Positions 17,201 through 44,668 are shown, counted from the first letter of the stretch. The stretch: 64,000 bases of DNA from Candidatus Heimdallarchaeota archaeon (GCA_011364965.1 RDOB01000003.1:128001-192000); one strand, 5' to 3'. Notes: a model not told the origin generated them from the sequence alone. Made by a program: numbers and translations.

Positions 17201-17757
17201 AACCATATAAATTAATCCTTTTTTTCGGTGTAGGATTTATTTTTGGGATTTTAAGAGAGAATTTAATTCAGGTTCTTATTGAATTGGCAATTCTACCGTC
17301 ATTGTATACTTATTCTCTTCATTTTTTACGAATTTTGTATTCGCCAATAGTAATAGGAATTGGATGGATTTTTGCATTTTATAACGGTATGATAGTTGGA
17401 GAACGGTATTTGAAGTCTACTAATCCTGTAAAAACCAGTTTTTTGGCTGCTATTTTTGTTATGTTGGTCTCTTTTCCGATTGAAGTTACAGTAGTTGCAA
17501 TGAATTGGTGGATTTGGTAAATCCTGGGAATGCCCTTATTCATGGAAATTCCTTTAATGACTCCATTTGGTTGGGGAACCGCAGCATTTATTTTCATTTT
17601 CTCTTTCAAGCTGATTGATCAAAGAATAGAGAGAAATCAAAACAAAATCTTAATATTTTTAGGTTTGATAATTCCTTTGATTGGAGTCCATTTCACCATA
17701 ATTTTTGTTCTAAGAACAGCTTTTGTTGCCTTAGGTAACTTAGGAATACTACTCTGA
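17198..17757 (+). pseudogene. Carotenoid biosynthesis (CruF/DUF422)-like membrane protein with an internal stop
   Basis: ORFs 17113-17520 and 17530-17757 are in one frame, split by TAA at 17518 (WWIW*ILGMP); IGIGW and IPL.TPFGW motifs. Confidence 0.6.
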
Positions 17758-18408
17758 TTTTTCTGATGAATTAAAAGACTTCAACTTTTTCACTGGTACT
17801 CCGCCATATAAGCTATTAGCATCTAGTACCCAATTAGCAGGGACAGTAGATCCCATAGCGACAGTAGTATTATCTCCTATAATAACTCCTGGTAGAATTA
17901 CACAATATGCTCCAATGGTGACGTTTTTCCCGATTCTCAGTCGCTTTCTATACATCTTTTGACTTCGTATGTGGTGACCAGATACGATTGCACCAGTACC
18001 AATTAAAGAATTTTCCCCTACATCAATAAGATCTGGATCCCAAAGAGTTGTTAAGATTGAAACTCCTTTCCTTCGTTTGAATCCAAATAATTGATAAATG
18101 AAATCTGGGATAGGAGAGTGAATGAATAACTTTCTTGTTAAAGTGAGTGCTATATCTAGTGATGTAGCTTGAACAGTCCAGAGTATTAAATTTACTCCAG
18201 TTATTTCCCCTTCTTTAGTTCCCATGGCAATACGGGAAAGTTTATGAGCTGATGCTAATAAAACTAAACTCAATAAATATGTCACTGGAATTGAAATGAT
18301 TACAGAAGGCACTAATCCAAAAGCAAATGAATCAATTATTGTATAAACGAATAAAAACAAAATTAATAATGATAATGTCAAAAGCAATTGAATAGCAAAG
18401 AAAAGCAT
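17749..18408 (-). CDS. Membrane-anchored hexapeptide-repeat (left-handed beta-helix) acyltransferase
   Basis: Two N-terminal TMs; IGKNVTIGAYCVILPGVIIGDNTTV...GGVPVK. Confidence 0.85.
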   Translation of the reverse strand: MLFFAIQLLLTLSLLILFLFVYTIIDSFAFGLVPSVIISIPVTYLLSLVLLASAHKLSRIAMGTKEGEITGVNLILWTVQATSLDIALTLTRKLFIHSPIPDFIYQLFGFKRRKGVSILTTLWDPDLIDVGENSLIGTGAIVSGHHIRSQKMYRKRLRIGKNVTIGAYCVILPGVIIGDNTTVAMGSTVPANWVLDANSLYGGVPVKKLKSFNSSEKSE

Positions 18409-18430
18409 AATTTACACCATTTTTCACTTA

Positions 18431-20092
18431 TCAGATCATTTCAGGGTTTGTAGAGGGGGCAAGATGACCAAATACTTCCTCTGCAATATTAATTGCACCA
18501 TCAAATACAGATCGTGTACCATTCCACGTTTTTAATTCCTTTGAGTAGGTTTTACAAAATCTAGTCAGAAATTCAGTTAATGTTCTTTGAAGCTCAGGAT
18601 CCTGTTTATTACTAAATAAGGCAGCTGAAACACCTGTGTTCTTCTCTTTATCAGTTAATATAAAATGATTTCCGTGACGTACAAGGTTAAGGTCTCCTTT
18701 CTCCTTCATAGTTTCATTCATAAATGAAGCAACCGCAGTTAAGGCACCAGATAATAAAGTGAGTTCCGTTGAGATATCTATCTTTTGAAAACTGTAATCG
18801 AAGATAGGTAATCCACCTTCTTCGATAACAAGTAACAATGTAAAGTCAAGAGGTTTGTAACTGTCAGATACCCAAAATAAGGGGAAAGCTGCTAAAATAG
18901 CTAAAATAGTGATTAAATAGGTAATTATCTCCACGTTCTCAATTTCTGGAGGTAAGATCCAATAACCGATAATATAACCGATTCCCAACCCTACAACAAG
19001 GGATATAAATCCCATGGCGTAATATCGTCCTAAACCATCACGAGGTGACAAGTCGGCCCATAAAGAGGAATCTAAAGTGGGATGTAAAAATGAAAATGAT
19101 ACACCAATGCTTAAAGCAGCTACTATAAAGCTATTCGGGGTTTTTTCTAAACCAAAAATCAATGAAGCAAAAACAATTCCGTAGATTGCTACAACAATTA
19201 AATTTTTCCGTCCGAATCTATCCGTAAAGTATCCAGCAGGTAAAATTGCAAGTAGGTCTCCTACTAAAACAATGAACCAAAAACTCTTATCGATAGGAAG
19301 ATCAAATTCTCCAACGGATGGTATTTCTATAATCCACGAAATATTTAGCACTTCTGCTCCAAGTTGTGAAAAACTTGCAAGAACAATTCCCAACATTGTG
19401 TAGAGGAGGATATGTGTACTAAGATAAGCACGTACTGATCTTCTATTTATAATTTTATGAAATCGAGTAGGCCATTTATCATTTTTCCAACTTAACATAT
19501 TACGAGTTAATAAATAAAAACATATTGTAAGCAAAATGCCAAATATGCCCACAATAGATAATATACTCACAAAACTGTGACTTAAATATTCTGTATCATT
19601 GAATCTAGATGAGTAACCTCCCCCAAAGAGAATTGCTACTATGCCTAGGATAATAAAAGAAAAGATAATGTACGAATATATTCTTCCGCGTTTCCACATA
19701 TCAGAAAGACCAGCGAACAGAGTACCACTACTTGTTAATAGTAAACTAAAGAAAAATGCCAAACTAGCTAAACCTATTATTAAAAAAAGGCCTTCTTGCA
19801 AGACAAATACGAAAAATATTACACTCAAGGAACTACCTGACATTCCAATTAGAATAGATGTTCGTAAATATCTTGGTTCTTGATCCAATTTAACCCCCGT
19901 ATAATAAATTACAAAAATCACTAATATAAGTATCAAGATCAAAAGTAATGCTCCTAATCCTGCAAATGGATTATTAGCAGAGCTTTCTATATAATTAATA
20001 ATATCAAAAGAATAGATCAACACTAATAATGTGGCTAATAACCAAGTGAAAACACTAGGAATAATGACAATTAATTTGGTTCTTAATTTCAT
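18431..20092 (-). CDS. MFS transporter fused to a C-terminal longin-like domain (paralog A)
   Basis: About 12 TMs, motif A GYFTDRFGRK; last ~140 aa LLVIEEGGLPIFDYSF...LLSGALTAVASFMNE...FLTRF...WNG...F. Confidence 0.8.
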   Translation of the reverse strand: MKLRTKLIVIIPSVFTWLLATLLVLIYSFDIINYIESSANNPFAGLGALLLILILILVIFVIYYTGVKLDQEPRYLRTSILIGMSGSSLSVIFFVFVLQEGLFLIIGLASLAFFFSLLLTSSGTLFAGLSDMWKRGRIYSYIIFSFIILGIVAILFGGGYSSRFNDTEYLSHSFVSILSIVGIFGILLTICFYLLTRNMLSWKNDKWPTRFHKIINRRSVRAYLSTHILLYTMLGIVLASFSQLGAEVLNISWIIEIPSVGEFDLPIDKSFWFIVLVGDLLAILPAGYFTDRFGRKNLIVVAIYGIVFASLIFGLEKTPNSFIVAALSIGVSFSFLHPTLDSSLWADLSPRDGLGRYYAMGFISLVVGLGIGYIIGYWILPPEIENVEIITYLITILAILAAFPLFWVSDSYKPLDFTLLLVIEEGGLPIFDYSFQKIDISTELTLLSGALTAVASFMNETMKEKGDLNLVRHGNHFILTDKEKNTGVSAALFSNKQDPELQRTLTEFLTRFCKTYSKELKTWNGTRSVFDGAINIAEEVFGHLAPSTNPEMI

Positions 20093-20205
20093 AACTTTGG
20101 CTTCCTTCTAATTGATTTTAATTTCTGTATGTACTCATTTTTTCCTTTTCTTTCAATCTTTTAGCTTCGATTATTTAATCCAATAACCATGAATTGTCAG
20201 ATAAA

Positions 20206-21843
20206 TTAACTCCTGAAAGATTTTGAAGGTAATAGAGGTCCAAATATTTCCTCTGCATACCCAATCCCTTTCTCAAACGCATTAGGCTGTCCAACCCACT
20301 TTTCAATTTCACTGTGATGAGATTTAGTAAATTTAACAAGAAATTGGTTCAAACTGCTTTGTAACTCAGCTGATGCTTTATTAGCAAAGATAGTGCCAAT
20401 AATATCTCCTTTAGAAGTGCTAATACGTGTTTGTACAATTAAAACATGACCATGACGCACTAAATCTAACGTTGCATGCTGTTCGTCTATTTCTTCAAAA
20501 AAAGTATCTATAGCAGAAAGTGCCCCTGCAACAAGAGCTAAATCTTTCTGCGAGATCTGTTCTTTATGATGGAAATCGTAATCAAATAGCAACATTCCAC
20601 TTCGCGTGACCAAGAGTAGATAGATATCCAAAGGGGGAAATGAATCGTTCATATAAAATAAAGGTAGGAGACTCAAGACTGCAAAGAAGAAAAGAATATA
20701 GCTTATATTACTAGAATCTGCTGTTATAAATGGATTGATGAATAATCCCAGCAATAATCCAGTTCCTATTCCTTGAAGAAGCATGACAAACCCTAGAGCA
20801 TTATAACGGCCAAGTGAATCTAAAGGACTTAAATCACACCATACGGTACTATCAATTGTCGGATGCATTGTAGAAAAGCTCCCACCCAAAATAAAAGCTG
20901 ATAAGTAAAACATGAAAGGATTATTACTTAGAGCTACAATTAATGCTGAAAGGACTATTCCGTAAACCCCGATGATAATCAAATTCTTCCTACCTATATG
21001 GTCAGCAATTAAACCATTAGGAAATACCAATAAAACATCTCCAAAGAAAACAAAAAGCCAAAAGAGCTTATCCTGATTAGCTTGAAATATGGAAAACCAG
21101 GGAGTATCAACTAAGAGGTTAGGAAATTTTATCTGACCTATTTCTGGAATTGTGATAAACGCAAAACCTAGCATCACATAAATAAAATAATGAGAAATTA
21201 AATAAGCTTTTGTAGGTCTTCGACTCAGAATTTTCTGTAACTTAGTTGGAAATTTATCATTAACCCACGGATCAATTGACCGACTGAATACATAAAAAAC
21301 TAAAGCTACAAGAATAGACAATAATCCTGTTAATATCAAAGGAAAATGGAAATCTAAAAAGTTAAATTCGGCAAATAACATAATTGTAATTACTGCAAAC
21401 ATACTCATGAATAATGCTCCTGCGTATAGACGTCCGCGATTATGTGCCTCAGAAAATCCAGAAAAGAATGAAGCTGTAGCTGTTGTACCCACTCCCAGAA
21501 AGAATCCCATGGCTGGAAGAGCAATAAGCAGAATACCGAAATAAATTGTTCCTAGAATTACTAGAAACAGAGAAATTCCAATTGATACCAAGGAGATTAC
21601 GATTAAGGATTTTAAATGTTCGGGATTCTTGTCAATAATCATCCCAGTTCCATATAAAGCACCTGTAGCTACTATAGCTGTAATAAGTAAGATAAAATAG
21701 GCTGGGTTAAAAGGAATGTCTCCAATAATCAATATCGGTGCTGTTTCAAGAAGATCAAGAGAGTAAACTAGCAAGAATATGGCTGTAATTAGCCACATCA
21801 TACTAATCGGGATCATTATTGTAAGAGATCTTAAAAATTTCAC
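20206..21843 (-). CDS. MFS transporter fused to a C-terminal longin-like domain (paralog B)
   Basis: About 12 TMs, GLIADHIGRK; C-terminus LLLVTRSGMLLFDYDF...LVAGALSAIDTFFEE...FLVKF...WVG...F. Confidence 0.8.
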   Translation of the reverse strand: MKFLRSLTIMIPISMMWLITAIFLLVYSLDLLETAPILIIGDIPFNPAYFILLITAIVATGALYGTGMIIDKNPEHLKSLIVISLVSIGISLFLVILGTIYFGILLIALPAMGFFLGVGTTATASFFSGFSEAHNRGRLYAGALFMSMFAVITIMLFAEFNFLDFHFPLILTGLLSILVALVFYVFSRSIDPWVNDKFPTKLQKILSRRPTKAYLISHYFIYVMLGFAFITIPEIGQIKFPNLLVDTPWFSIFQANQDKLFWLFVFFGDVLLVFPNGLIADHIGRKNLIIIGVYGIVLSALIVALSNNPFMFYLSAFILGGSFSTMHPTIDSTVWCDLSPLDSLGRYNALGFVMLLQGIGTGLLLGLFINPFITADSSNISYILFFFAVLSLLPLFYMNDSFPPLDIYLLLVTRSGMLLFDYDFHHKEQISQKDLALVAGALSAIDTFFEEIDEQHATLDLVRHGHVLIVQTRISTSKGDIIGTIFANKASAELQSSLNQFLVKFTKSHHSEIEKWVGQPNAFEKGIGYAEEIFGPLLPSKSFRS

Positions 21844-21952
21844 GGATAAGATGCCTCAGGATTGCAGTTTGATTGAGGAAAAAAAGTCCAAAACTCTAAT
21901 TAAAAAATGCTTCTGTTAAATTAATTAATAGGATTCTTCCCAGAAACGGAAA

Positions 21953-23002
21953 ATGGTTAAAATGAACGATTTGGAATTATATAATTTAGTAAAAGAGCTT
22001 GCAGAAATACCAGGGCCGGTGGGTAGGGAATCTGAGGTTCAAAAATATCTTTCAATGGAATGGGAACAGAACGGGTTTGAGACCTCATATGATAAGGTTG
22101 GTAATTTATATGGAAAATCTTTTGGTTCTGGGAAACGTTGGGCTATCGTATCTCACGCGGATTCGATCGGATTTATTGTCCAGAAAATATTAAGAAATGG
22201 TTTCATTAAAGTTGCATTTAATACTGCGGCAACAAATCCGGATGCAAGATTTTTAGCGGGAACTCCAGTTAGATTTCTTACAAATGATAACAAAATGGTC
22301 ATTGGATATTTTGGATTAAGAAGTGGGCACTTAGCAGGAGTTGAAGGCAAGAGGAAACCTATTTTATTTGAGGATATGTTTATAGATGTTGGAGTAGATT
22401 CAAAAGAGGAAGTAAATTCTCTTGGTATCGATATAGGATCAGCTGCGGTATTTTATTCTCCTGTTTTCAAATCTCAAAGTAATATTGTTGGACCTTCAAT
22501 GGACAATCGGATAGGAGGTGCTATTCAATGTTTACTAGCAAAGGAAATTAATGCGCAAAATACCTCTTTGAACCTCCATTTAATTTCAACTGTTCAAGAG
22601 GAGATTGGTATGAAAGGTGCTGCAGCCGTGGCAAGAAATTATGAATACGATGGAGTAATTGTGCTTGATATAGGACTAACTGGGGATATACCAACTTCTA
22701 ATAAAGATAATCTTGACACTCGGCTAAAAGGGGGGCCAATAATTGTATATAAGGACTTCTCTATTCATTATTCAGTTGAAATTATACAGGAAATTGAGGA
22801 GTTAGCAAAGACAAATAATATCCCTTTTCAAAGAGCAGTATTTAAAAACTTCAATACTGATGGAGTTCACTTCTTCATGAATGGTTATCCTACAGTAATG
22901 CTTGCTATTCCCTGTCGATATACACATACTAATTTCGAAACTATAAGATTTATAGATGTGAAAAACACGTTGAGTTTATTAAAACTTATTATTACAGTTT
23001 AA
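21953..23002 (+). CDS. M42 (TET-like) aminopeptidase
   Basis: GPVGRE, SHADSIG, MDNRIG, QEEIG.KGA, RYTHT. Confidence 0.9.
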   Translation: MVKMNDLELYNLVKELAEIPGPVGRESEVQKYLSMEWEQNGFETSYDKVGNLYGKSFGSGKRWAIVSHADSIGFIVQKILRNGFIKVAFNTAATNPDARFLAGTPVRFLTNDNKMVIGYFGLRSGHLAGVEGKRKPILFEDMFIDVGVDSKEEVNSLGIDIGSAAVFYSPVFKSQSNIVGPSMDNRIGGAIQCLLAKEINAQNTSLNLHLISTVQEEIGMKGAAAVARNYEYDGVIVLDIGLTGDIPTSNKDNLDTRLKGGPIIVYKDFSIHYSVEIIQEIEELAKTNNIPFQRAVFKNFNTDGVHFFMNGYPTVMLAIPCRYTHTNFETIRFIDVKNTLSLLKLIITV

Positions 23003-23045: not shown

Positions 23046-24731
23046 ATGTTTATAACACCAGTTACAATGATAAAAATGGGAGGAAGCTTGATTACTTATA
23101 AAAATGATGAACAACGCATTCAGAAATATTTAAAGGAAATAGACCAGTTCCTGTCAGGAAAAGGATCTATTGATAATCTCTATACGACTATATGTGAACT
23201 CATGAATTTTGAAGTACTCAATAAGATCTTTGAGATCCTAAAAAGGTATATAACGGCCAATCCTGATAGAAAAATAATTTTAATACATGGTGCAGGGTCA
23301 ATTGGCCATTCGTTGGTCTTTTATCTAACTAAAGAGAAAAAAAATCTCGAATGCACTTTTCCAATTATAAAATTAGCTGTTGCAATTCAAAATCAAATAA
23401 TTATTAGTTCTGCAATTAAAATGGGATTGAACACGATTTCAATGCCGTCTCATAATGTAATGATAGGAGGATTTTCATCGTCGATCTCTTCAACTTATGT
23501 TAATAGCCCAGATTTATCCGTTTTGGAAGAAATATTATGTAATTCTAATGCGATTCCAGTTTTTTATGGTGATGTTGGATTTTCAAAACGTGGATGGAAA
23601 GTACTTTCTGGAGATATATACTCAAGTTTGCTTATTAGACGATTTAAAGGATTAAGAATTACCAAAGCCATATTTCTCACTAGAGTTGAGGAGAAAACAA
23701 CTGGAATCTATACTGAAGATCCAGTGAACAATACCGCGGAATTTATTTCACGAATAGAAGTTGAACAAACTTCAGTAAAGTGCTATAATGAACATAATAG
23801 ACTTGTCCAATTTAAGAATTATGAGAAAAAAGATGGAAAATTTGATGTTACGGGAGCTATGCAGGGGAAACTTGAAAATTTAATCGATTTGGCAAATAAT
23901 TTTACTAAATCATGGGTTATTGGAATAGATGAATTCTATGAAGCCTTAGAAGGCAAATCTGTTGGAACACGAATTTATAAGACCATTAAGGAAAATATAT
24001 TAATAAAGTTTCTTGGAACGGGAGATGCATTTAATTCAGAAGGATTTAAGAGTGCCTCAACACTTATAGAAACAGAAGGAAGGTATATTCTTCTGGATTG
24101 TGGTCCTCATACTTTATCTGCAATGAAAAAAGCATTTCTTCCAACGAATAACATAGATCTAATCTTAATAACGCATTTTCATGGAGATCATACAGCTGGA
24201 GTTCCTTTTATTCTTCTTGAATCTATGATTCTCAGCAAAAGAAATCATCCTTTAACTATTTGTGGTCCACCTGGCGTTCAAAATGTTATAAAAGCACTAT
24301 ATGAGGCATTATATTCTGAATTATCAACAAAACCACATTCATTTGACATAATATTCTTAGAAATTACTCCTGGTAAGCCAGTTTTCTTTCCCAACCTCAA
24401 GATTCAAGCTATTAAAATGCTTCACACCCCAGAAGCTCTGGGATACATACTGGAGGGAAAGAATATGAAATTAGCTTATTCTGGTGATACAGGGTGGACT
24501 GAATCCTTACTAGAATTGGTTGAGGGTACTGATCTTGCCATAATTGAGTGTAATTTCATTGACCAAGAACATGAATATCATTTAAATTTCCATCAAGTGA
24601 AAAAATTGGCCAAACTCACAAAACGACTTTTCCTTACACACATGGGAGAGGGGGTACGCGATGATCTTGAAGAGTACTTAGTAAATACAAATATCTTCAT
24701 TGCCCACGAAGGAAATATAGAAAGATTTTAA
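23046..24731 (+). CDS. Isopentenyl phosphate kinase fused to an MBL-fold (RNase Z-like) hydrolase
   Basis: N-half KMGGSLIT, HGAGSIGH, GDV, SGD, DVTGAMQGK; C-half LGTGDAF, LDCG, THFHGDH, YSGDT, H motifs. Confidence 0.8.
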   Translation: MFITPVTMIKMGGSLITYKNDEQRIQKYLKEIDQFLSGKGSIDNLYTTICELMNFEVLNKIFEILKRYITANPDRKIILIHGAGSIGHSLVFYLTKEKKNLECTFPIIKLAVAIQNQIIISSAIKMGLNTISMPSHNVMIGGFSSSISSTYVNSPDLSVLEEILCNSNAIPVFYGDVGFSKRGWKVLSGDIYSSLLIRRFKGLRITKAIFLTRVEEKTTGIYTEDPVNNTAEFISRIEVEQTSVKCYNEHNRLVQFKNYEKKDGKFDVTGAMQGKLENLIDLANNFTKSWVIGIDEFYEALEGKSVGTRIYKTIKENILIKFLGTGDAFNSEGFKSASTLIETEGRYILLDCGPHTLSAMKKAFLPTNNIDLILITHFHGDHTAGVPFILLESMILSKRNHPLTICGPPGVQNVIKALYEALYSELSTKPHSFDIIFLEITPGKPVFFPNLKIQAIKMLHTPEALGYILEGKNMKLAYSGDTGWTESLLELVEGTDLAIIECNFIDQEHEYHLNFHQVKKLAKLTKRLFLTHMGEGVRDDLEEYLVNTNIFIAHEGNIERF

Positions 24732-24760: not shown

Positions 24761-25009
24761 TCAGGTATTATCTGATTTAGGAGTTAGAAACCAGACGATA
24801 TTCTTCCTCTCGCCATCTTTTCCTGCAACAACTTTGTAACTCACTTTACCCTCCATCCTCATTTGTGTCAGAGCCATAGGTATCCGATCAGCACAATCTT
24901 GATTATAGATTTTCACTTCGTTCATTATTTCTTCGGTTGTTCCTTCATTCATATCAGCAAGAATGGTTAAAATCCACTTTTCAGTACCTCTGTACTCTTC
25001 GGTAACCAA
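24761..25009 (-). CDS. Small winged-helix protein
   Basis: ILTILA...GTTEEI...ALTQMRMEGKV...W pattern; GGTGA SD with TTG start. Confidence 0.6.
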   Translation of the reverse strand: MVTEEYRGTEKWILTILADMNEGTTEEIMNEVKIYNQDCADRIPMALTQMRMEGKVSYKVVAGKDGERKNIVWFLTPKSDNT

Positions 25010-25286: not shown

Positions 25287-25841
25287 GTGTCCAAAGAAAT
25301 TAAACATATATTGAAATTATTACTCCTTGGGGATGGAGCAGTAGGTAAAACATCCCTAATATTGCGCTATATTGAAAATAAATTTAAAGAAGAATATTCC
25401 ATGTCTCTGGGAGTTGATTTCTTAACAAAAACCGTTAAATTTATTGATGAAAATAACACACAAAGAACTGTTTCCCTGCAAATCTGGGATATCGCAGGCC
25501 AGGCACGTCACGTTTCTTACTCGCATCTCTATTTAAAAGGGGCTCAAGGTGCATTTTATGTGTTCGACTTAACCCGTAAAGAAACATTAATGCAAATTCA
25601 ATCAAGATGGCAATCTCAAGTAGCAAAAGTTTCTCCTCAATGCCTTTCAATTCTGATTGGTAACAAAGCAGATTTAAAGAAGGAACGGGATATTACTAAA
25701 TCTGAAGTAAATCAAATAAAACAATCCATGTATGCAATCGATTTTATTGAAACCTCTGCAAAAACTGGACTAAATGTTGATCAGGCGTTTTCAACGATGG
25801 CAGCTGCTATCTTAAATCTCAAAATAAAAAAATACCTTTGA
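25287..25841 (+). CDS. Rab-like small GTPase
   Basis: G1 GDGAVGKT, SLGVDF, G3 WDIAGQ, G4 GNKAD, G5 ETSAK; no C-terminal Cys. Confidence 0.95.
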   Translation: MSKEIKHILKLLLLGDGAVGKTSLILRYIENKFKEEYSMSLGVDFLTKTVKFIDENNTQRTVSLQIWDIAGQARHVSYSHLYLKGAQGAFYVFDLTRKETLMQIQSRWQSQVAKVSPQCLSILIGNKADLKKERDITKSEVNQIKQSMYAIDFIETSAKTGLNVDQAFSTMAAAILNLKIKKYL

Positions 25842-25850
25842 GGGCTTTGT

Positions 25851-26621
25851 TTGTCACTACAAGACTTTAAAACCATTAAAGCGTTTTTTGTTTTCCAAAA
25901 AGAGAGCGGGAATACTTTATTTACACGCTCATATGAAAAAGAAGATTCTCAGACTCCAGATCCACATCTAGTTGTTGCTTTTTTGACTGCGATGTTCTCA
26001 TTCGCAAAATCTTCATCATTAAGTGATCTAAGAGTCGTAGATATGACTGACCTTCGTTTTTCCTTTATTGAACGTGAGGGTTTAGTCTTTTCAATTCTAG
26101 CATCTGCCTTAGTTAGTCCAATGGATTTACAGTTTAAACTTACTACAATTGCCAGTTTATTCCTAGCAGAATATGGAGATAAAATTAAAAAAATACAGCT
26201 AATAGATACAGAAATTTTCGAACCTTTTTCAGCTCAAGTTGACGAAATCTTTAAAGGCGAAACGAGAGAAATGCTAACCTCCTCAAAAAACGCTGCACTG
26301 TTCTATTTAAAGAAATTAATGCAACAAAACGATATTGGGGTAAGAGGGTGCATGATTGTTTCATTTACAGGTGATATTTTAATCGAACATAATATGGATC
26401 AAAAAAGAATGGCAGGAGCAATTCGATTATTGAATGTAAGCACATATATGAGAAATTTACGATATATGGTTGTTTCTTCTGAAGCTACTAATCTTGTTGC
26501 ATATAAGATTAGCGAAGGGCTATTATTATATGTTGATGGCGATCCCTCAACAGGTTTGGAGAATCTAGTTGTAAGAGTAGCAGAAACTGTCAACCAGATT
26601 AAAGAAATTATCCCACATTGA
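25851..26621 (+). CDS. Longin + roadblock/LC7 fusion protein
   Basis: N-half FVFQKESGNTLF...LVVAFLTAMFSFA...F...Y (longin-like); C-half GVRGCMIVSFTGDIL...LVAYKISEGLLLYV (roadblock-like); 9 bp after the GTPase. Confidence 0.7.
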   Translation: MSLQDFKTIKAFFVFQKESGNTLFTRSYEKEDSQTPDPHLVVAFLTAMFSFAKSSSLSDLRVVDMTDLRFSFIEREGLVFSILASALVSPMDLQFKLTTIASLFLAEYGDKIKKIQLIDTEIFEPFSAQVDEIFKGETREMLTSSKNAALFYLKKLMQQNDIGVRGCMIVSFTGDILIEHNMDQKRMAGAIRLLNVSTYMRNLRYMVVSSEATNLVAYKISEGLLLYVDGDPSTGLENLVVRVAETVNQIKEIIPH

Positions 26622-38404: not shown

Positions 38405-38791
38405 TTGAAAAAACATAGGATTTTAGTTGTTGACGATGAGGAGGATACAGTTGAACTAGCACGTATGGTTCTGGAATACGAAAATTATGAAGTTATTTCT
38501 GCTAGCAATGGAGAGGATGCATTAGAACTCCTCAAAGAAAACAGAAATAGACCGAATTTAATTTTATTAGATGTTCTCATGCCAAAAATTAGTGGACTAG
38601 AAGTTTGTAGATGGATAAAAGAGAACAATGAATTAAAAAATATACCAGTTCTACTATTTACTGCAAAGGTAGGTAAAAAAGATAGGCAAGCAGGTGAAGA
38701 AGCAGGGGCAAACGCATATATCAATAAACCATTTAGCGCAGAGGACTTACTAAATCTAATTAAAAAGCATCTAGATAAAGAAGAAAATTAA
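38405..38791 (+). CDS. Stand-alone response regulator receiver (CheY-like)
   Basis: ILVVDDE, LLDVLMP, FTA, KPF. Confidence 0.95.
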   Translation: MKKHRILVVDDEEDTVELARMVLEYENYEVISASNGEDALELLKENRNRPNLILLDVLMPKISGLEVCRWIKENNELKNIPVLLFTAKVGKKDRQAGEEAGANAYINKPFSAEDLLNLIKKHLDKEEN

Positions 38792-38797
38792 CTCAAT

Positions 38798-39121
38798 TCA
38801 AAACCTTAAATTTTCAATAAAAACTCTCATTGATGGAAATCGCTCCCCTAAAGTCACCAAAAAATTCCTTGTGCAATTAACCAAACGAAACGTTAAATTA
38901 ATTCTCCTATCAATATAATCAATTGAGGAATGAATATCAATTCCATAGTTTCGTTGTTCTAGGAATCGGAAAGTGAAATGCCAGCGTTTTAATGACTGAA
39001 GATAGAATTGAAACTGCTCTTCATTCACTACAACTAATAAGTTAGAAGGAGAATTCTGTACAATTGAAATATACCTCTTTCCAGGTTTAATCAAGGAAAT
39101 AAAATTGTCAAGACTAGTCAT
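38798..39121 (-). CDS. Hypothetical protein, faint resemblance to the NuoC/30-kDa subunit fold
   Basis: Abuts the FAH gene; LTFRL...TLGERFPS. Confidence 0.45.
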   Translation of the reverse strand: MTSLDNFISLIKPGKRYISIVQNSPSNLLVVVNEEQFQFYLQSLKRWHFTFRFLEQRNYGIDIHSSIDYIDRRINLTFRLVNCTRNFLVTLGERFPSMRVFIENLRF

Positions 39122-39919
39122 TTAATCTACTCCAATCTCAAGAGTACCAATTGATTGAATTGTGGCTGTAATTTTGTCTTCTCGTGCAAGAGGCCCGACA
39201 CCGCTCGGAGTGCCTGTAGCAATGATATCTCCAGGCTCCAAAGTAGTGATTGTGCTACAATAGCTGATAATGTCAGGGATAGAAAAAATCATTTGACTTG
39301 TATTACCTTTTTGACGGATTTTACCATTGACCTTCAATTCTAAATCCAAATTTTGTGGATTTAAAATTTCATTTTTAAGCACAATAAATGGACCAAGAGG
39401 ACAAAATGTATCAAATCCTTTAGATACAAACCATGGACGTCCTTCTTTCTTAGCAATTGCCTGAAAATCACGTGCTGTAATATCCAGAAGAATAGAATAT
39501 CCAAAGATATAATCTATACTCCTCAATGGCTCTATATTTTTTCCTTTTTTGCCTATTACTACCGCTAATTCTATTTCATGATGGATTTCCTCAACCTCAG
39601 GAGGAAAATATATGTTTCTATTCGGACCCAATAAAGAAGACGGAGGTTTTAAAAACAAAGACGGAATTGGAGGAAGATTTCTTGGTTCAACTCCCATTTC
39701 CACCGCATGGTCTGGATAATTCTTGGCTAAGCAAATAATTTTTGAAGGGTTGTTAATTGGCAAATCTAAGGGAGGAATATTATCTAAAAGTTCATATTCT
39801 GAAGTTTCAATTAAGGAAAAATCGAGAATTATCTCTTTAAGACTACCTAGACTAATATATTTCTTTATAAGAGAGGCTTCTGAAGTGATTACACTATTTT
39901 TAGAAATTCCGATTTTCAT
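39122..39919 (-). CDS. Fumarylacetoacetate hydrolase family protein
   Basis: KNYPDHA.E, HEIELAVVIG, DITARD, KGFDTFCPLGP, TGTPSGVG. Confidence 0.95.
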   Translation of the reverse strand: MKIGISKNSVITSEASLIKKYISLGSLKEIILDFSLIETSEYELLDNIPPLDLPINNPSKIICLAKNYPDHAVEMGVEPRNLPPIPSLFLKPPSSLLGPNRNIYFPPEVEEIHHEIELAVVIGKKGKNIEPLRSIDYIFGYSILLDITARDFQAIAKKEGRPWFVSKGFDTFCPLGPFIVLKNEILNPQNLDLELKVNGKIRQKGNTSQMIFSIPDIISYCSTITTLEPGDIIATGTPSGVGPLAREDKITATIQSIGTLEIGVD

Positions 39920-40152
39920 AAAGGCTCCTCATGTTTATAATTTGGATGGATACGCTCTATAATCTGAATAATAGAATAATATTTATTTATTCTTAATGAT
40001 TTGACGTTAAATCAACTTTGGAACGAGTTCAAAAACTTTCTTTTTAATTCCTCATTCGCCTTCTAGAGATTCGAGATCGGTATAAGCTAAAAAACTTACA
40101 TACAATTGAAGCTTAATAATCAACAAGAGGAAATTATTGATTATTATGAGGT

Positions 40153-41091
40153 ATGAATGTGAAATATCTAGTAACTGGTGGCGCAGGATTCGTCGGGAGC
40201 CATCTAATTGAATCATTACTTGCTGAAAATCATGAAGTGGTATGTTTAGACAATTTCAGCACAGGAAAAGAAACCAATATTGAGGGATTCAAAGAGAATA
40301 TAACAATAATAAATGGAGATATAAGAGATCCAAATAAGGTTCGTGTAGCCCTGAAAGATGTTGAAGCTGTTTATCATCTCGCTGCTCAAATTTCTGTTGC
40401 TAGATCTGTGAGAGAACCAATATTTGATGCTTCAGTTAACATTGAAGGGATAATAAATCTTCTTGAATCGATATTAACATCAGATATTAATCGTTTAATT
40501 TTTGTAAGTACTGGGGGTGCAATTTATGGTGAACCTTTACAAATCCCAGCAACAGAAATAACTGAAGAAAAACCTATTTCACCTTATGGAATAAGTAAAC
40601 TTACTAGTGAAATCTATTTACAATGGTACCATAAAATACATGGGATTTCCTATTCAATTATCAGACCAGCAAACATTTACGGTCCTAGACAAGATCCTCT
40701 TGGAGAGGCAGGAGTCATATCCATATTTCTGGGAAATATTTATTCAAATCAGCCTGTTACAATTTATGGTGACGGAACAGATACTCGTGATTATATTTTT
40801 GTCAAAGATATTGCTAATATTTGTATGAAAGCAATGGAATCTTCATATTGTAACACCTATAACGCAGGAACGGGAATAGAAACTAATTTATTAGATCTTG
40901 TTAAAGTCATTGAAGAAGCTACAGGTCAAAAAGCTGAAAAAGAATTTAAACCTCCCCGACCAGGTGATGTGAAACATATAGCGCTTGATTCTTCAAAAGC
41001 ATTAGATGATTTCAAGTGGAAACCTCAAAATGATCTTCTCAGTGGAGTACGAACCACTTGGAAATGGTTCCTTTCAACGCAGAAGTCCTAA
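40153..41091 (+). CDS. galE: NAD-dependent epimerase (UDP-glucose 4-epimerase-like)
   Basis: VTGGAGFVG, HLAAQ, YGISK, NIYGPRQ. Confidence 0.85.
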   Translation: MNVKYLVTGGAGFVGSHLIESLLAENHEVVCLDNFSTGKETNIEGFKENITIINGDIRDPNKVRVALKDVEAVYHLAAQISVARSVREPIFDASVNIEGIINLLESILTSDINRLIFVSTGGAIYGEPLQIPATEITEEKPISPYGISKLTSEIYLQWYHKIHGISYSIIRPANIYGPRQDPLGEAGVISIFLGNIYSNQPVTIYGDGTDTRDYIFVKDIANICMKAMESSYCNTYNAGTGIETNLLDLVKVIEEATGQKAEKEFKPPRPGDVKHIALDSSKALDDFKWKPQNDLLSGVRTTWKWFLSTQKS

Positions 41092-42098
41092 ATCCCAGCA
41101 ATTATCTTAACTTTTTCCTCTTGCTCTTTTATCCATTTCTCATCTACATTTGGAGACCCAAACCATTTCCAAAATGATCCCACAACTGGAGGATCAAGTT
41201 TGACATCCAATCTAGGATTTTGAGCTACTAAGAAAAATGCTTGCCATAATTCTCCAACAGCAGTTTGGTATAGACGCTTAATTATTTTATCATCTGCTTG
41301 AGCCTTTAATGCTTTGGAATATTGATTTAATCTTTTCTCTGATTCATTTATAGATACAAATGCCGTTAAAATCCACATTTCCCTCTCTGTTTTCACATTT
41401 TTTCTATAAAGATGTTCTGCTAATAATTCTAACTCTTTTCTTGCATTGATTAGCTTTTCGTAATTAAAAGAAGGAATTTGTATTAAATTGGCAAAAAATT
41501 GAAAGAGTTTTATATCTAATTGGTTTAATGAGTCCAATAGGAGAGAAGCAGGACCAATATCAAAATCATTTTTTTCCATTAAAGGAATACATATAGCCTC
41601 TTCGGCTGCTTTTATCAACCAGATGTAGGCGTCTGCTAACATATCCTCTTGAATTCGATTATTCATTCTACTAAGTAAAACCTGTGTTGTTTGACGTTTC
41701 AACTCAATCACTTCAGATTGCCACTTGATCTGAGGAGCTAGTTGAACCCATTCTTTTAAACGACCTCGAGGGTCGTAGATAATGTCAGAATTGCGTAAAA
41801 GTCTTATCACTGTCGCAATTTGCCAATAAGGTACGCTTTTCCTTCCCTCAAGAACATCTGTAAAAAATGATGGAGGAGCAAATGTTAATTTTATTTCATA
41901 TTCATCACTTTCTGATAGATCAGTTACCCTAGTTTCTTTTAAATCCCTTACACCCTCTCTCACTGCCCAAAGGTTGACTGTTGATTCTAGTTCTTGAAAC
42001 TCATCATGAATAAGCAGTCGCCCGATTTCTTGGTGTTGTGCCTCAATTCTCCCCAATAGAGTTGTTATGATGCGATCTAGAGCGATATTATCGATCAA
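41088..42098 (-). CDS. Hypothetical protein, degenerate nucleotidyltransferase-like N-terminus with helical C-terminus
   Basis: IIYDPRG.L motif; canonical GS and DxD residues not visible. Confidence 0.45.
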   Translation of the reverse strand: MIDNIALDRIITTLLGRIEAQHQEIGRLLIHDEFQELESTVNLWAVREGVRDLKETRVTDLSESDEYEIKLTFAPPSFFTDVLEGRKSVPYWQIATVIRLLRNSDIIYDPRGRLKEWVQLAPQIKWQSEVIELKRQTTQVLLSRMNNRIQEDMLADAYIWLIKAAEEAICIPLMEKNDFDIGPASLLLDSLNQLDIKLFQFFANLIQIPSFNYEKLINARKELELLAEHLYRKNVKTEREMWILTAFVSINESEKRLNQYSKALKAQADDKIIKRLYQTAVGELWQAFFLVAQNPRLDVKLDPPVVGSFWKWFGSPNVDEKWIKEQEEKVKIIAGI

Positions 42099-42265
42099 AA
42101 AGATACCTCCTTTTTATTTTATTTCTATTGAACTTCTGATGATATCATTAAAATTATCTTTGTTTTTATAAAATATGAGCTTATAGAGAATTCGGAAAAA
42201 AGGGGGATAATGATTTTTAATAAATTATTATAGCTGTATTCTTGAAGAAAAAGTAGGACTCTACA

Positions 42266-44668
42266 ATGATAAAATATCATTTAAATGTCTCTAAAATTGG
42301 AATAATTTTCCTAGTAATCTTAATTATTCCTAACATTACAGTTAACAGCAATCAAACTCCAACTAAACAATTATCAAATCAATTGAATTCAACACAAGAA
42401 ACCACGAATATTAATGTTCTCGTTGTACTTATGGAAATTCCAAATGACCCCCATCATCCAAGTCATACGACTGATTATTATGAAACCCTATTTTTCTCAA
42501 TGAGTGGTAGTTTGAGCGTTGCGGAATATTTTATGAATACATCTTATGGTGTTGTCCAATTATATGGTATTGTTCTTGGCTGGTATGAAGCAGAGAATGA
42601 ACTCGAGTTTTATGGTGCAGGAAATCGGATTCCTCCAGGTGCTGACACTCAAACCCAGCTTTTAGCAGATGAGGCGAGATTAAATGCCCAGAATTCGAGT
42701 TTCGATCCAGTAAATTTCGATTTATTCATTGTTATTCATTCAGGGGATGGTCAAGAATATTCTGGAAATTCAGATGATATCTGGTCCCACGCTTCGAGCT
42801 TTTGGTACCAAGATAATGAAGGGTGGAAATTATTAGAATACACTATGAATCATGAATTTGTGGATTATGAAACTCCATCTCATGAATTAGGTCACGCGTT
42901 AAAATTCCCAGATCTTTATGACTTATATTACGAACACGATTTTGCTGGGCCTTATGCTATGATGGATGGAGGCCCTGGACATTTTTCTATTTGGAATAAA
43001 TATTATAGTCATGTCTCAAGGGGAGATTCCCCTCAGCTCCTCGCGCAGGAACATAGATATCAGATTCAAAATTATAGTGATGATACTTTCATAACTATTA
43101 ATCCGATAGCATTGGAGCAACCGAGTGGAATCATGTGGTTAGAAATTGGATGGGACTCAACTGGCTTCACAGATCCAAATTATGGAAGAGGATGGACAAT
43201 AAGTGTACGAGAGGATCTTGATTATGATAGGTTTCTCCCTAAACACGGTGTTGTACTAGCTCGTATCCAAGTTGGGCCGAGAAGTACGTATCAAACACAA
43301 GTAACTGCTGATGTGTATCCTCCATGGGATGTCATCGATTCACATCCTGAAACGAGTGAAAATAAAGATGACGCAGCATTTTCTCTGACAGATGGAGACA
43401 TAGTTTCTTATAAGTCTGGAAACGGATGGGCGATGCAAATTATTGAAAAGTACTCTAATTCATCCTATTTAATTCAGATTACAAATGAAACTAATATCCC
43501 TACTGTAAGAATAATCGATAATAATCAAACAATATCTGGAATATTTCCCCTAAAAGCAATCGTAAATAGCTTTATTAATAAGTCAATCGATTTTGCAGAG
43601 ATTTCTATCGATAATGGAGGTTGGAAGCCAATGGAAAAAATCCATGATGAAGAAGGTAACTTTACGTTTAATTGGGACACAACTAATGAACGAGAAGGAA
43701 GTCACTTAATTCGTGTTAGAGCAGGTGACTCTTCTACTATTCCTTATATTGGACATTCTGAATTTATAGTAATTGAAGTTAATAATTCAAAAGGTACAAT
43801 CCTTATTATTGATGATGATCTAGGAAGATCTGCTGAAGAACCAGTCTTAAATGCATTAGATCAGTTGGGGTATAATGGGGATTATGAAATAATTGAAACC
43901 ACATCTTTCTCTGAAGCAGAAGTATCTGCAGAGGAACTGTCAAAATATGACATTATTTTTTGGATTGGTAATCCTTCCATATCACCTCTGAGCAATTCTC
44001 ATATAAATACAGCAGAATTCAACGAAATAAGAAAATATACTCTTCAGGCAACGTTGGAAAATCCTGCTCAGATCATATTCATGTCCAGTTACAATATTTT
44101 TGACTTAAGTAATCAAAATGAAGTTAATAGTCAACAAGTTTCAGAGATTTTCAAAGCTACAAGTCCCCAAAACTTCCGAGCGCCTGTTACTTTGCTGCAA
44201 GGATCTCATTTTTTAGAGAACTTACCAAAGTTTACCTTAGGAGACACTTCCACTTTACGTTCCAATCGTAGTTGTGATGGAGAGGTTGTAGACTTACTTT
44301 CTGGTGCAATACCTATATTGAAGGATATTGATCCAGAATATAATGGATACGATACTAAAGGTTATATCGTTCAACAAGGATTTGTAAAGCTTGTAAATTA
44401 CCTTTTCCAACCTGAGATGGTACCAAATGAAATTTTCGCGGATCTGATTGACAAAACATTAGATTTTCTAATCTCAGGGGAAAATATTGTCACTCAAACA
44501 ACAACTACTAGAACTACAACTTCTATACTAGATTTAGGGGATCTTCTGTTGCCTGCAGGAATTGTTATTGCTATAGTTGGAGGAATTGGAACTGTGGTTT
44601 ACATGAGAAGAGGAATCAGGAAAGAATCTAAGGTATCATCCTACTGGTTGAAATCTGAAAAAAACTAG
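42266..44668 (+). CDS. Membrane-anchored M6-family (immune inhibitor A-like) metalloprotease
   Basis: Signal peptide, HSGDGQE, IWSH, HELGHALKFPDLYD, Ig-like domain, Thr-rich linker, C-terminal TM. Confidence 0.88.
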   Translation: MIKYHLNVSKIGIIFLVILIIPNITVNSNQTPTKQLSNQLNSTQETTNINVLVVLMEIPNDPHHPSHTTDYYETLFFSMSGSLSVAEYFMNTSYGVVQLYGIVLGWYEAENELEFYGAGNRIPPGADTQTQLLADEARLNAQNSSFDPVNFDLFIVIHSGDGQEYSGNSDDIWSHASSFWYQDNEGWKLLEYTMNHEFVDYETPSHELGHALKFPDLYDLYYEHDFAGPYAMMDGGPGHFSIWNKYYSHVSRGDSPQLLAQEHRYQIQNYSDDTFITINPIALEQPSGIMWLEIGWDSTGFTDPNYGRGWTISVREDLDYDRFLPKHGVVLARIQVGPRSTYQTQVTADVYPPWDVIDSHPETSENKDDAAFSLTDGDIVSYKSGNGWAMQIIEKYSNSSYLIQITNETNIPTVRIIDNNQTISGIFPLKAIVNSFINKSIDFAEISIDNGGWKPMEKIHDEEGNFTFNWDTTNEREGSHLIRVRAGDSSTIPYIGHSEFIVIEVNNSKGTILIIDDDLGRSAEEPVLNALDQLGYNGDYEIIETTSFSEAEVSAEELSKYDIIFWIGNPSISPLSNSHINTAEFNEIRKYTLQATLENPAQIIFMSSYNIFDLSNQNEVNSQQVSEIFKATSPQNFRAPVTLLQGSHFLENLPKFTLGDTSTLRSNRSCDGEVVDLLSGAIPILKDIDPEYNGYDTKGYIVQQGFVKLVNYLFQPEMVPNEIFADLIDKTLDFLISGENIVTQTTTTRTTTSILDLGDLLLPAGIVIAIVGGIGTVVYMRRGIRKESKVSSYWLKSEKN

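Follow-up and report, generated by a model that had tools for sequence, protein, structure and literature searches.

We analyzed a 64,000-nt stretch of DNA from Candidatus Heimdallarchaeota archaeon (GCA_011364965.1, RDOB01000003.1:128001-192000), hereafter the window, which is the segment C11:128001-192000 of a genome of 2.97 Mb with a completeness of 87%. Two adjacent genes in the window, here called A and B, each encode a divergent transporter of the major facilitator superfamily (MFS) that carries a longin domain as its C-terminal cytoplasmic tail. Their closest protein matches are named as Hodarchaeales/Hodarchaeota or Heimdallarchaeota and are annotated just as "MFS transporter". The MFS-longin fusion combines known parts into a new domain architecture: literature searches combining longin with MFS, major facilitator, Asgard or Hodarchaeales returned no description of such a fusion, and we know of no characterised transporter with a longin as its C-terminal regulatory domain. 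The fusion recurs across Asgard archaea, where it may provide a membrane-anchored platform coupled to small GTPases.

Both genes are encoded on the minus strand, with gene A located 113 nt downstream of gene B (Table 1). The A and B proteins align end to end at 35% identity with an E-value of 1e-106, which places their paralogy far beyond chance. The first-pass annotation, made from the sequence alone, had described two adjacent, co-oriented, paralogous genes of ~550 aa, each with about 12 transmembrane (TM) segments and a soluble C-terminal domain of ~140 aa, in agreement with the two reading frames of 553 and 545 aa, the 12 segments in each and the cytoplasmic tails reconstructed here. The tail pattern and the MFS motifs that it quoted are all present in the translations, and the tail bounds that it gave (18431-18855 and 20206-20635) match those found in this work. 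Its observations are thus confirmed, and its interpretation is supported in part. It had read the tails as longins, had named retention of the pair in relatives as a check and knew of no characterised MFS-longin fusion; in the searches reported here the tails are longin folds, the tandem pair is retained in relatives and no described MFS-longin fusion was found in the literature.

The match of both proteins to Pfam MFS_1 (PF07690) exceeds the family cut-off of 33.4 and is mainly confined to their C-terminal halves. By hydropathy scan, 12 TM segments were identified in A and 12 in B; in the latter, two of the 12 overlap their neighbors and one expected helix lies under the threshold. The loops of A on one side of the membrane are enriched in lysine and arginine residues (three at the N-terminus, three in the TM2-3 loop, three in TM4-5, eight in TM6-7, three in TM8-9 and two in TM10-11), and those on the opposite side have zero or one each. 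The central loop with eight such residues (positions 196-223) joins the two six-helix halves. This positive-inside pattern assigns the N-terminus, the central loop and the C-terminal tail of A to the cytoplasm.

The MFS motif A (G-x-x-x-D-R-x-G-R-K/R) is absent from the TM2-3 loop, which reads GVKLDQEPRY in A and GMIIDKNPEH in B; a motif A-like copy is found instead in the TM8-9 loop (TDRFGRK in A, ADHIGRK in B). The missing N-half motif is a deviation within the MFS superfamily and does not exclude these proteins from it. Among 70 members of the MFS-longin family, the TM8-9 loop signature G..D..GRK and two glycines of TM11 are 94-99% conserved (83% for the lysine, K296), and no conserved intramembrane charged residue was found in the same set. 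The conservation of this loop and of the glycines suggests a working alternating-access carrier with a variable or unassigned substrate. A phmmer search of the membrane domain against the PDB sequences gave nothing at an E-value of 0.1 or better, so that no substrate class can be proposed. Among the NCBIfam models, only a sub-threshold superfamily match was obtained for A and B (TIGR00880, 41 bits against a cut-off of 131), and a feature search of the ESM Atlas returned generic bacterial MFS clusters only.

The tail of A was modeled with AlphaFold2 (AF2) from an alignment of 150 diverse sequences, with a predicted local distance difference test score (pLDDT) of 90.9 and a predicted template-modeling score (pTM) of 0.85. 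A first model, built from a 12-sequence alignment, had a pLDDT of 55.6 and was excluded from the fold searches. The secondary structure elements assigned by DSSP (E6-12, E18-23, H30-51, E59-62, E65-71, E78-83, H88-110, H116-130) follow the order beta-beta-alpha-beta-beta-beta-alpha-alpha, without an N-terminal helix. In a Foldseek search against the PDB, the top matches are the TRAPP subunits Bet5, Trs23 and TRAPPC1 (E-values of 1.3e-5 to 5e-5, TM-scores up to 0.68), the best single match being Bet5 (3cue_C, E-value 1.3e-5, TM-score 0.68), and the next ranks are taken by AP-2 sigma, Mon1/Ccz1 and Sec22b. An independent structural alignment, run all against representatives, gives Z-scores of 13.4 for the VAMP7 longin, 13.3 for Bet5, 12.8 for Sec22, about 11.9 for Mon1-Ccz1 and 11.4 for the Lokiarchaeota longin 8yqg_B; the highest ranks are taken up by longins throughout. 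Solved longins (VAMP7, Bet5, Sec22, synbindin, Mon1, Ccz1, Fuzzy, SRX) match the tail at Z 13.4-11 over 120-134 of its 142 residues, whereas roadblock/MglB proteins match less well, at Z 9-10.9 over only 92-108 residues.

At the sequence level, the tail profile has near-significant matches among the PDB sequences only to TRAPP Bet5/TRAPPC1/Trs23 (E-values of 0.015-0.1). Neither Pfam nor NCBIfam contains a family that scores above its cut-off for the tail: Sybindin (PF04099) reaches 15.8 bits on the B tail (E-value 0.015, cut-off 25), and the A tail scores nothing against Sybindin or Fuz_longin_1 (PF19036). Judged from the predicted structure, the longin assignment is solid at the level of the fold, and by sequence the tail is a member of a large longin family for which no Pfam model exists.

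The tails of A and B share the pattern LLLV..G..FDY.F / GAL.A...F..E / L.LVRHG / W.G...F....AEE.FG, with an extended motif FG(H/P)L.PS conserved after the last helix. The tail is more strongly conserved than the membrane domain, both in A orthologs (71% vs 60%) and in B orthologs (55% vs 48%). The arginine of LVRHG, located at the beta3-beta4 turn, is conserved in both A and B, with glutamine in some orthologs, and is not conserved in the wider family. A glycine-proline (GP) motif immediately before beta-2 marks the longins of the GTPase-activating protein (GAP) type, such as FLCN, NPRL2 and SMCR8/C9orf72 (PMC12290439). This motif was found in neither tail: A reads EEGGLPIF, with a G-L-P kept in A orthologs, B reads SGM(L/C)xF without a proline, and the wider longin family keeps the glycine alone at this position. 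The arginine of LVRHG would be at most a putative counterpart of the catalytic arginine finger that GAP-type longins carry beside the GP motif.

Full-length MFS-longin relatives were identified in at least six Asgard families, coded here (f1, f3, f11, f14, f27 and f30). In a maximum-likelihood tree of 70 members, the Hodarchaeales A proteins (13 rows, support 99) and B proteins (9 rows, support 100) are nested in one 23-row Hodarchaeales-type clade (support 99), which makes the A/B duplication specific to this lineage; a third paralog group is placed just outside this clade. Within the genomes of the Hodarchaeales family, orthologs of A are 57-68% identical and those of B 41-56%. B and A stand next to each other, in that order, in at least 12 of these genomes, and five genomes of the family (G011, G023, G058, G026 and G008) possess an A-type gene alone, with the same flanking genes. 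An independent co-oriented tandem occurs in f14 g25 (L068, L069, L070 and L082), where the two genes are 190-240 nt apart and encode proteins of 547-559 aa, each of which forms its own clade in the tree. The third Hodarchaeales paralog is accompanied, at L093:10452-12329 (-) and L094:10417-12240 (-), by a 608-626-aa open reading frame (ORF) 4-77 nt upstream on the same strand.

The longin module itself has a much wider distribution. A profile built from 12 tails and searched against 1.84 billion representative proteins detected 1400 clusters at an E-value of 1e-3 or better, and the module is C-terminal in 121 of 138 cases, in proteins of widely differing lengths. At least 14 ORFs of the host genome contain it, and the fusion partners there include a HerA-type ATPase, a MinD/CbiA-type ATPase, TPR repeats and regions without a family match. 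The representative matches include fusions with KaiC-type ATPases and with further MFS carriers, and in Atlas models the same fold is joined to response regulators and V4R domains. The longin module is a general add-on module. One member of the same longin family, a 563-aa MinD/CbiA-longin protein, is encoded in a cluster with a GTPase gene and two roadblock genes (G000 C12:38577-43263, minus strand; roadblock genes at 38577-38891 and 38900-39241, GTPase at 40072-40617, MinD/CbiA-longin at 41572-43263). Another region, G000 C13:140375-145561, contains two divergent neighbors, an 872-aa HerA/DUF87 ATPase with an internal longin and an 853-aa protein of no recognised family with a C-terminal longin.

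The local gene order in the window is the acetyltransferase, A and B on the minus strand, an M42 aminopeptidase gene and an ORF with fused kinase and metallo-beta-lactamase domains on the plus strand, a winged-helix-like ORF on the minus strand, then a Ras-like GTPase, a longin-roadblock protein and a GNAT protein. The acetyltransferase, whose best solved relative is the E. coli galactoside O-acetyltransferase (E-value 9e-10), likely forms one transcription unit with gene A, and a hexapeptide transferase is the nearest detected homolog downstream of A on the same strand in most relatives. The resemblance of this arrangement to LacY-LacA was considered as a clue to the substrate and rejected: the acetyltransferase matches only generic O-acetyltransferases and falls under every NCBIfam cut-off. 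The GTPase retains the G1 (GDGAVGKT), G3 (WDIAGQ), G4 (NKAD) and G5 motifs and has no C-terminal cysteine. The protein that follows it matches Fuz_longin_1 (E-value 4.7e-4, residues 10-115) and a roadblock profile (E-value 2.9e-9, residues 153-254), and its orthologs match the A2 longin profile with E-values down to 7e-14.

Table 1. Genes and domains of the MFS-longin locus; positions are counted from the first nucleotide of the window.
Feature	Coordinates	Strand	Description
Gene A, MFS-longin fusion	18431..20092	-	553 aa, ATG start; MFS_1 56.7 bits
A membrane domain, residues 1-411	18860..20092	-	12 TM helices, N-in/C-in; hydropathy, conservation
A cytoplasmic longin domain, residues 412-553	18434..18859	-	AF2 model, Foldseek, Z-scores
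Gene B, MFS-longin fusion	20206..21843	-	545 aa, GTG start; MFS_1 46.6 bits
B membrane domain, residues 1-401	20641..21843	-	12 predicted TM helices; hydropathy scan
B cytoplasmic longin domain, residues 402-545	20209..20640	-	39% identical to A tail; in longin-fold alignments A2/A5
Hexapeptide-repeat (LacA/Maa-like) acetyltransferase	17749..18408	-	Pfam Hexapep; 22 nt downstream of A
Ras/Rab-like small GTPase, candidate partner	25287..25841	+	Pfam Ras 153 bits
Longin-roadblock fusion, candidate partner	25851..26621	+	256 aa; 9 nt after GTPase

The fused ORF between the two gene groups (23046-24731, plus strand) combines an amino-acid-kinase/isopentenyl phosphate kinase (IPK) domain with an RNase Z-like metallo-beta-lactamase (MBL) domain. 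It scores 84.5 bits against the NCBIfam model IPPK_Arch, under the cut-off of 120, and the IPK-MBL fusion is kept in all 12 syntenic loci of the family at 44-53% identity. The 82-aa ORF at 24761-25009 (minus strand) has no family match and resembles a small winged-helix protein; its counterparts in relatives are 52-67% identical and always lie divergently upstream of the Ras-like GTPase gene. Near-identical copies of the region 17700-22000 (40-97% of sampled 31-mers) were detected in metagenome runs from marine sediment, estuary, mangrove, sediment and 'soil'; these runs come from seven studies and include no RNA runs.

The block composed of A (with or without B), IPK-MBL, the winged-helix-like ORF, the Ras-like GTPase and the longin-roadblock gene is present in 12 of 13 loci of the Hodarchaeales family, despite gain and loss of B and of the M42 aminopeptidase. 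We further surveyed 40 MFS-longin loci from other lineages. On one contig of Thorarchaeota type, 82-88 nt separate the MFS-longin gene from a small GTPase gene, which in turn has a TIR-roadblock gene beside it. All five loci surveyed in f14 g45 and g65 have a canonical roadblock gene directly next to the MFS-longin gene, in differing orientations, and in four of them a GTPase gene with a second roadblock gene is located about 3 kb away. The adjacent roadblock protein is the best Robl_LC7 match of its genome in 5 of 5 genomes, which have 10-18 such matches each, and the GTPases of the Thorarchaeota-type and f14 loci form one clade with 99% support. These cross-lineage neighborhoods speak to some extent, and independently, for a link to roadblock proteins and GTPases. 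Small GTPases are the binding partners of most characterised longin and roadblock dimers, and a functional connection of the MFS-longin proteins with roadblock/GTPase modules is plausible, at slightly less than even odds.

Several known systems resemble parts of this arrangement. The TRAPP pair Bet5/TRAPPC1-Trs23/TRAPPC4 (PDB 3CUE, 2J3T, 7B6D), which provides the closest solved structures by Foldseek and the near-significant profile matches, consists of two diverged longins that pair into a GTPase-binding surface. However, the TRAPP longins are soluble and belong to a multi-subunit guanine nucleotide exchange factor (GEF) for Rab, whereas the longin described here is covalently attached to a 12-TM carrier and is only 11-18% identical to them, any GTPase binding or TRAPPC3-like partner being hypothetical. 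The longin SNAREs (VAMP7, Sec22b, Ykt6) have the best Z-scores and likewise tether a longin to a membrane protein as a regulatory or adaptor module. In the SNAREs, the longin is N-terminal to the SNARE motif and a single TM segment and folds back on the SNARE motif; the MFS-longin proteins lack a SNARE motif and carry the longin at the C-terminal end of a polytopic transporter. In polytopic carriers such as SLC26/SulP-STAS, ClC-CBS and Trk/Kef-TrkA, a small alpha/beta cytoplasmic domain, often dimerising, regulates transport, and the MFS-longin proteins differ from them in the fold of the tail and in its presumed partners.

Closer in function may be SLC38A9-Ragulator-Rag and PQLC2-C9orf72/SMCR8/WDR41 (the latter described in PMC12290439), in which longin/roadblock proteins that act on small GTPases are physically linked to a solute carrier; similarly, in three Asgard lineages MFS-longin genes repeatedly have roadblock and GTPase genes in their vicinity. 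These carriers belong to other transporter families and bind their partners non-covalently, whereas here the longin is fused and the GP motif is absent, so the likeness would be one of functional analogy. Asgard longin/roadblock proteins of known structure (PDB 8YQG, 9JUE) come from the same phylum and have the same fold. Asgard longin modules fused to GTPases, TRAPPC3 and two-component domains have been described (10.1101/2020.10.19.343400; PMC10933270), and the fusions to two-component domains reported by Liu et al. 2020 (10.1101/2020.10.19.343400) involve related 'NPRL2-like' longins. Liu et al. 2020 and Tran et al. 2024 (PMC10933270), searched for the relevant terms, and the other literature found make no mention of a longin fused to a transporter or to a polytopic membrane protein of any kind.

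An interpretation can start from five established points: the fusion itself, its membrane topology, the fold of the tail as a longin, the strong conservation of the tail and the recurrence of the architecture across Asgard archaea. The best explanation, to which we assign a probability of about 0.4, is that the proteins form a membrane-anchored longin platform on a divergent MFS-type carrier that is coupled to a small GTPase. Each gene would encode a divergent MFS-type solute carrier with its C-terminal longin held at the inner face of the membrane. The longin tails would pair, A with B in this genome and probably A with itself where A stands alone, and the paired tails would create a membrane-fixed platform on which soluble roadblock/longin proteins and a Ras-like GTPase, the putative partners, could dock. 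The activity or conformation of the carrier would then be coupled to the state of the GTPase. The coupling may operate in either direction, by regulating transport or by recruiting the GTPase to the membrane.

In the heterodimeric longin GEF platforms (TRAPP core, Mon1-Ccz1, Fuzzy-Inturned), two different longins form a stable dimer that binds the nucleotide-free small GTPase and speeds up exchange. Pairing of the tails was assessed by predicting the complex of the A and B tails with deep alignments, which gave an interface score (ipSAE) of 0.51, compared with 0.00 for the best of three controls. In the calibration, 58 of 80 solved complexes and 2 of 110 mismatched pairs pass the mark used to call a pairing, and among those passing it, scores of 0.60 or less belong to 7 of the 80 solved complexes and to both mismatches. 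At least 87% of contacts are shared between the runs, and the pLDDT of the partners is at least 77. The predicted A-B pairing is a weak pass, and the claim of the first-pass annotation that the two longins heterodimerise therefore stands in part: the model is weakly in its favor, but the heterodimer is not obligatory, because five genomes of the family keep A alone in the same synteny.

The A-B score does not separate A-B pairing from A-A or B-B pairing and may reflect a memory of solved longin heterodimers. Further points weigh against a GTPase-coupled platform. In the window, 3.4 kb and two or three unrelated genes separate the pair from the GTPase gene, which is encoded on the opposite strand and is immediately followed by a longin-roadblock partner of its own; the GTPase itself belongs to a different clade from the Thorarchaeota-type and f14 GTPases, and the synteny within the family may be due to inheritance alone. 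The host genome encodes about 50 small GTPases that belong to the Ras superfamily and 12 roadblock-like ORFs in its 2.97 Mb, and 13.7% of its long ORFs have a small GTPase gene within 5 kb, a background so high that GTPase proximity in this genome is uninformative by itself. Several GTPase-roadblock clusters are present in it (for example, C13:49163-51347). Elsewhere in the same genome, members of the longin family are located beside GTPases in only about 2-3 of 17 cases. Across lineages, the surveyed MFS-longin loci fall into 14 orthologous groups, defined after the data were seen; about 9 of these have no GTPase gene within 5 kb and about 5 have one, an excess that we estimate to be marginal. 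No GTPase gene was found within 5 kb of the third Hodarchaeales paralog in four loci. Finally, the longins of SNAREs and adaptins work without GTPases.

A rival reading is that the tail is a self-contained regulatory or oligomerisation domain, comparable to STAS, CBS or TrkA-C, which would dimerise the carrier, or gate it by folding back onto its cytoplasmic face, without any GTPase, the synteny being inherited gene order. We consider this a possible reading and give it tentative credence. Most MFS-longin loci across the phylum lack a GTPase or roadblock neighbor, and the occurrence of the same module at the C-terminus of HerA, KaiC and MinD-type ATPases and of TPR proteins, and by fold on response regulators, fits a generic dimerisation or adaptor function. 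The weak A-B pairing and the conserved FG(H/P)L.PS after the last helix also speak for it. However, the roadblock adjacency in f14 and the GTPase/roadblock adjacency in the Thorarchaeota-type locus are unlikely to arise by chance, and the majority of characterised longin and roadblock proteins partner a GTPase. Another reading would be that A and B are ordinary tandem paralogs with diverged substrates, each working on its own as a monomer, and that their tandem order reflects no more than a recent local duplication. The duplication is indeed lineage-specific, B evolves faster than A and is missing from five syntenic loci, and MFS carriers are usually monomers. We regard this as unlikely, since the pair is retained adjacent and co-oriented in at least 12 genomes although the paralogs are only 35-39% identical, a separate tandem is likewise retained in f14 g25, and the A-B pairing, if weakly, passes.

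The first-pass annotation had proposed a candidate transceptor whose two diverged longins heterodimerise and relay transporter occupancy to a GTPase. In a true transceptor, the membrane domain would be a solute sensor, whether or not it also transports the solute, and the paired A and B longins would serve as GEF or GAP for the neighboring Ras-like GTPase, as a prokaryotic counterpart of SLC38A9-Ragulator-Rag or PQLC2-C9orf72/SMCR8. All points in favor of the GTPase-coupled platform apply here too, as do the degenerate N-half motif A and the high divergence of the membrane domain, whose conservation is below that of the tail, a feature of sensor-type carriers. The pair is also adjoined by an M42 aminopeptidase gene in the host and several other genomes, but it is inconstant in the block. 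The near-invariant TM8-9 signature and TM11 glycines suggest a working carrier instead, the GP motif of GAP-type longins is absent from both tails, and A-only genomes exist. The cross-lineage neighborhoods do not support this specific model, and its GTPase relay, for which the evidence is gene neighborhood, is unproven; we judge the transceptor improbable. A bolder extension, to which we likewise give low odds, is that the MFS-longin proteins are a prokaryotic counterpart, possibly a forerunner, of eukaryotic lysosomal nutrient sensing: the state of the carrier would gate a longin homo- or heterodimer which, together with roadblock or longin-roadblock proteins, would recruit or switch a GTPase that has no lipid anchor.

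The GTPase-coupled platform bears on a puzzle of Asgard biology. Asgard archaea encode dozens of small GTPases together with longin and roadblock proteins, but these GTPases have no eukaryote-style lipid anchors, and their route to the membrane is a puzzle. A longin fused to a polytopic transporter and found phylum-wide is a candidate membrane receptor for the longin/roadblock/GTPase machinery, and it offers an entry point to the question of whether transporter-coupled GTPase signaling of the SLC38A9-Rag and PQLC2-C9orf72 kind predates eukaryotes. Even without a GTPase, the fusion would represent a new class of regulatory tail for MFS carriers, and it defines a large longin family, with about 1400 representative clusters, for which Pfam has no model.

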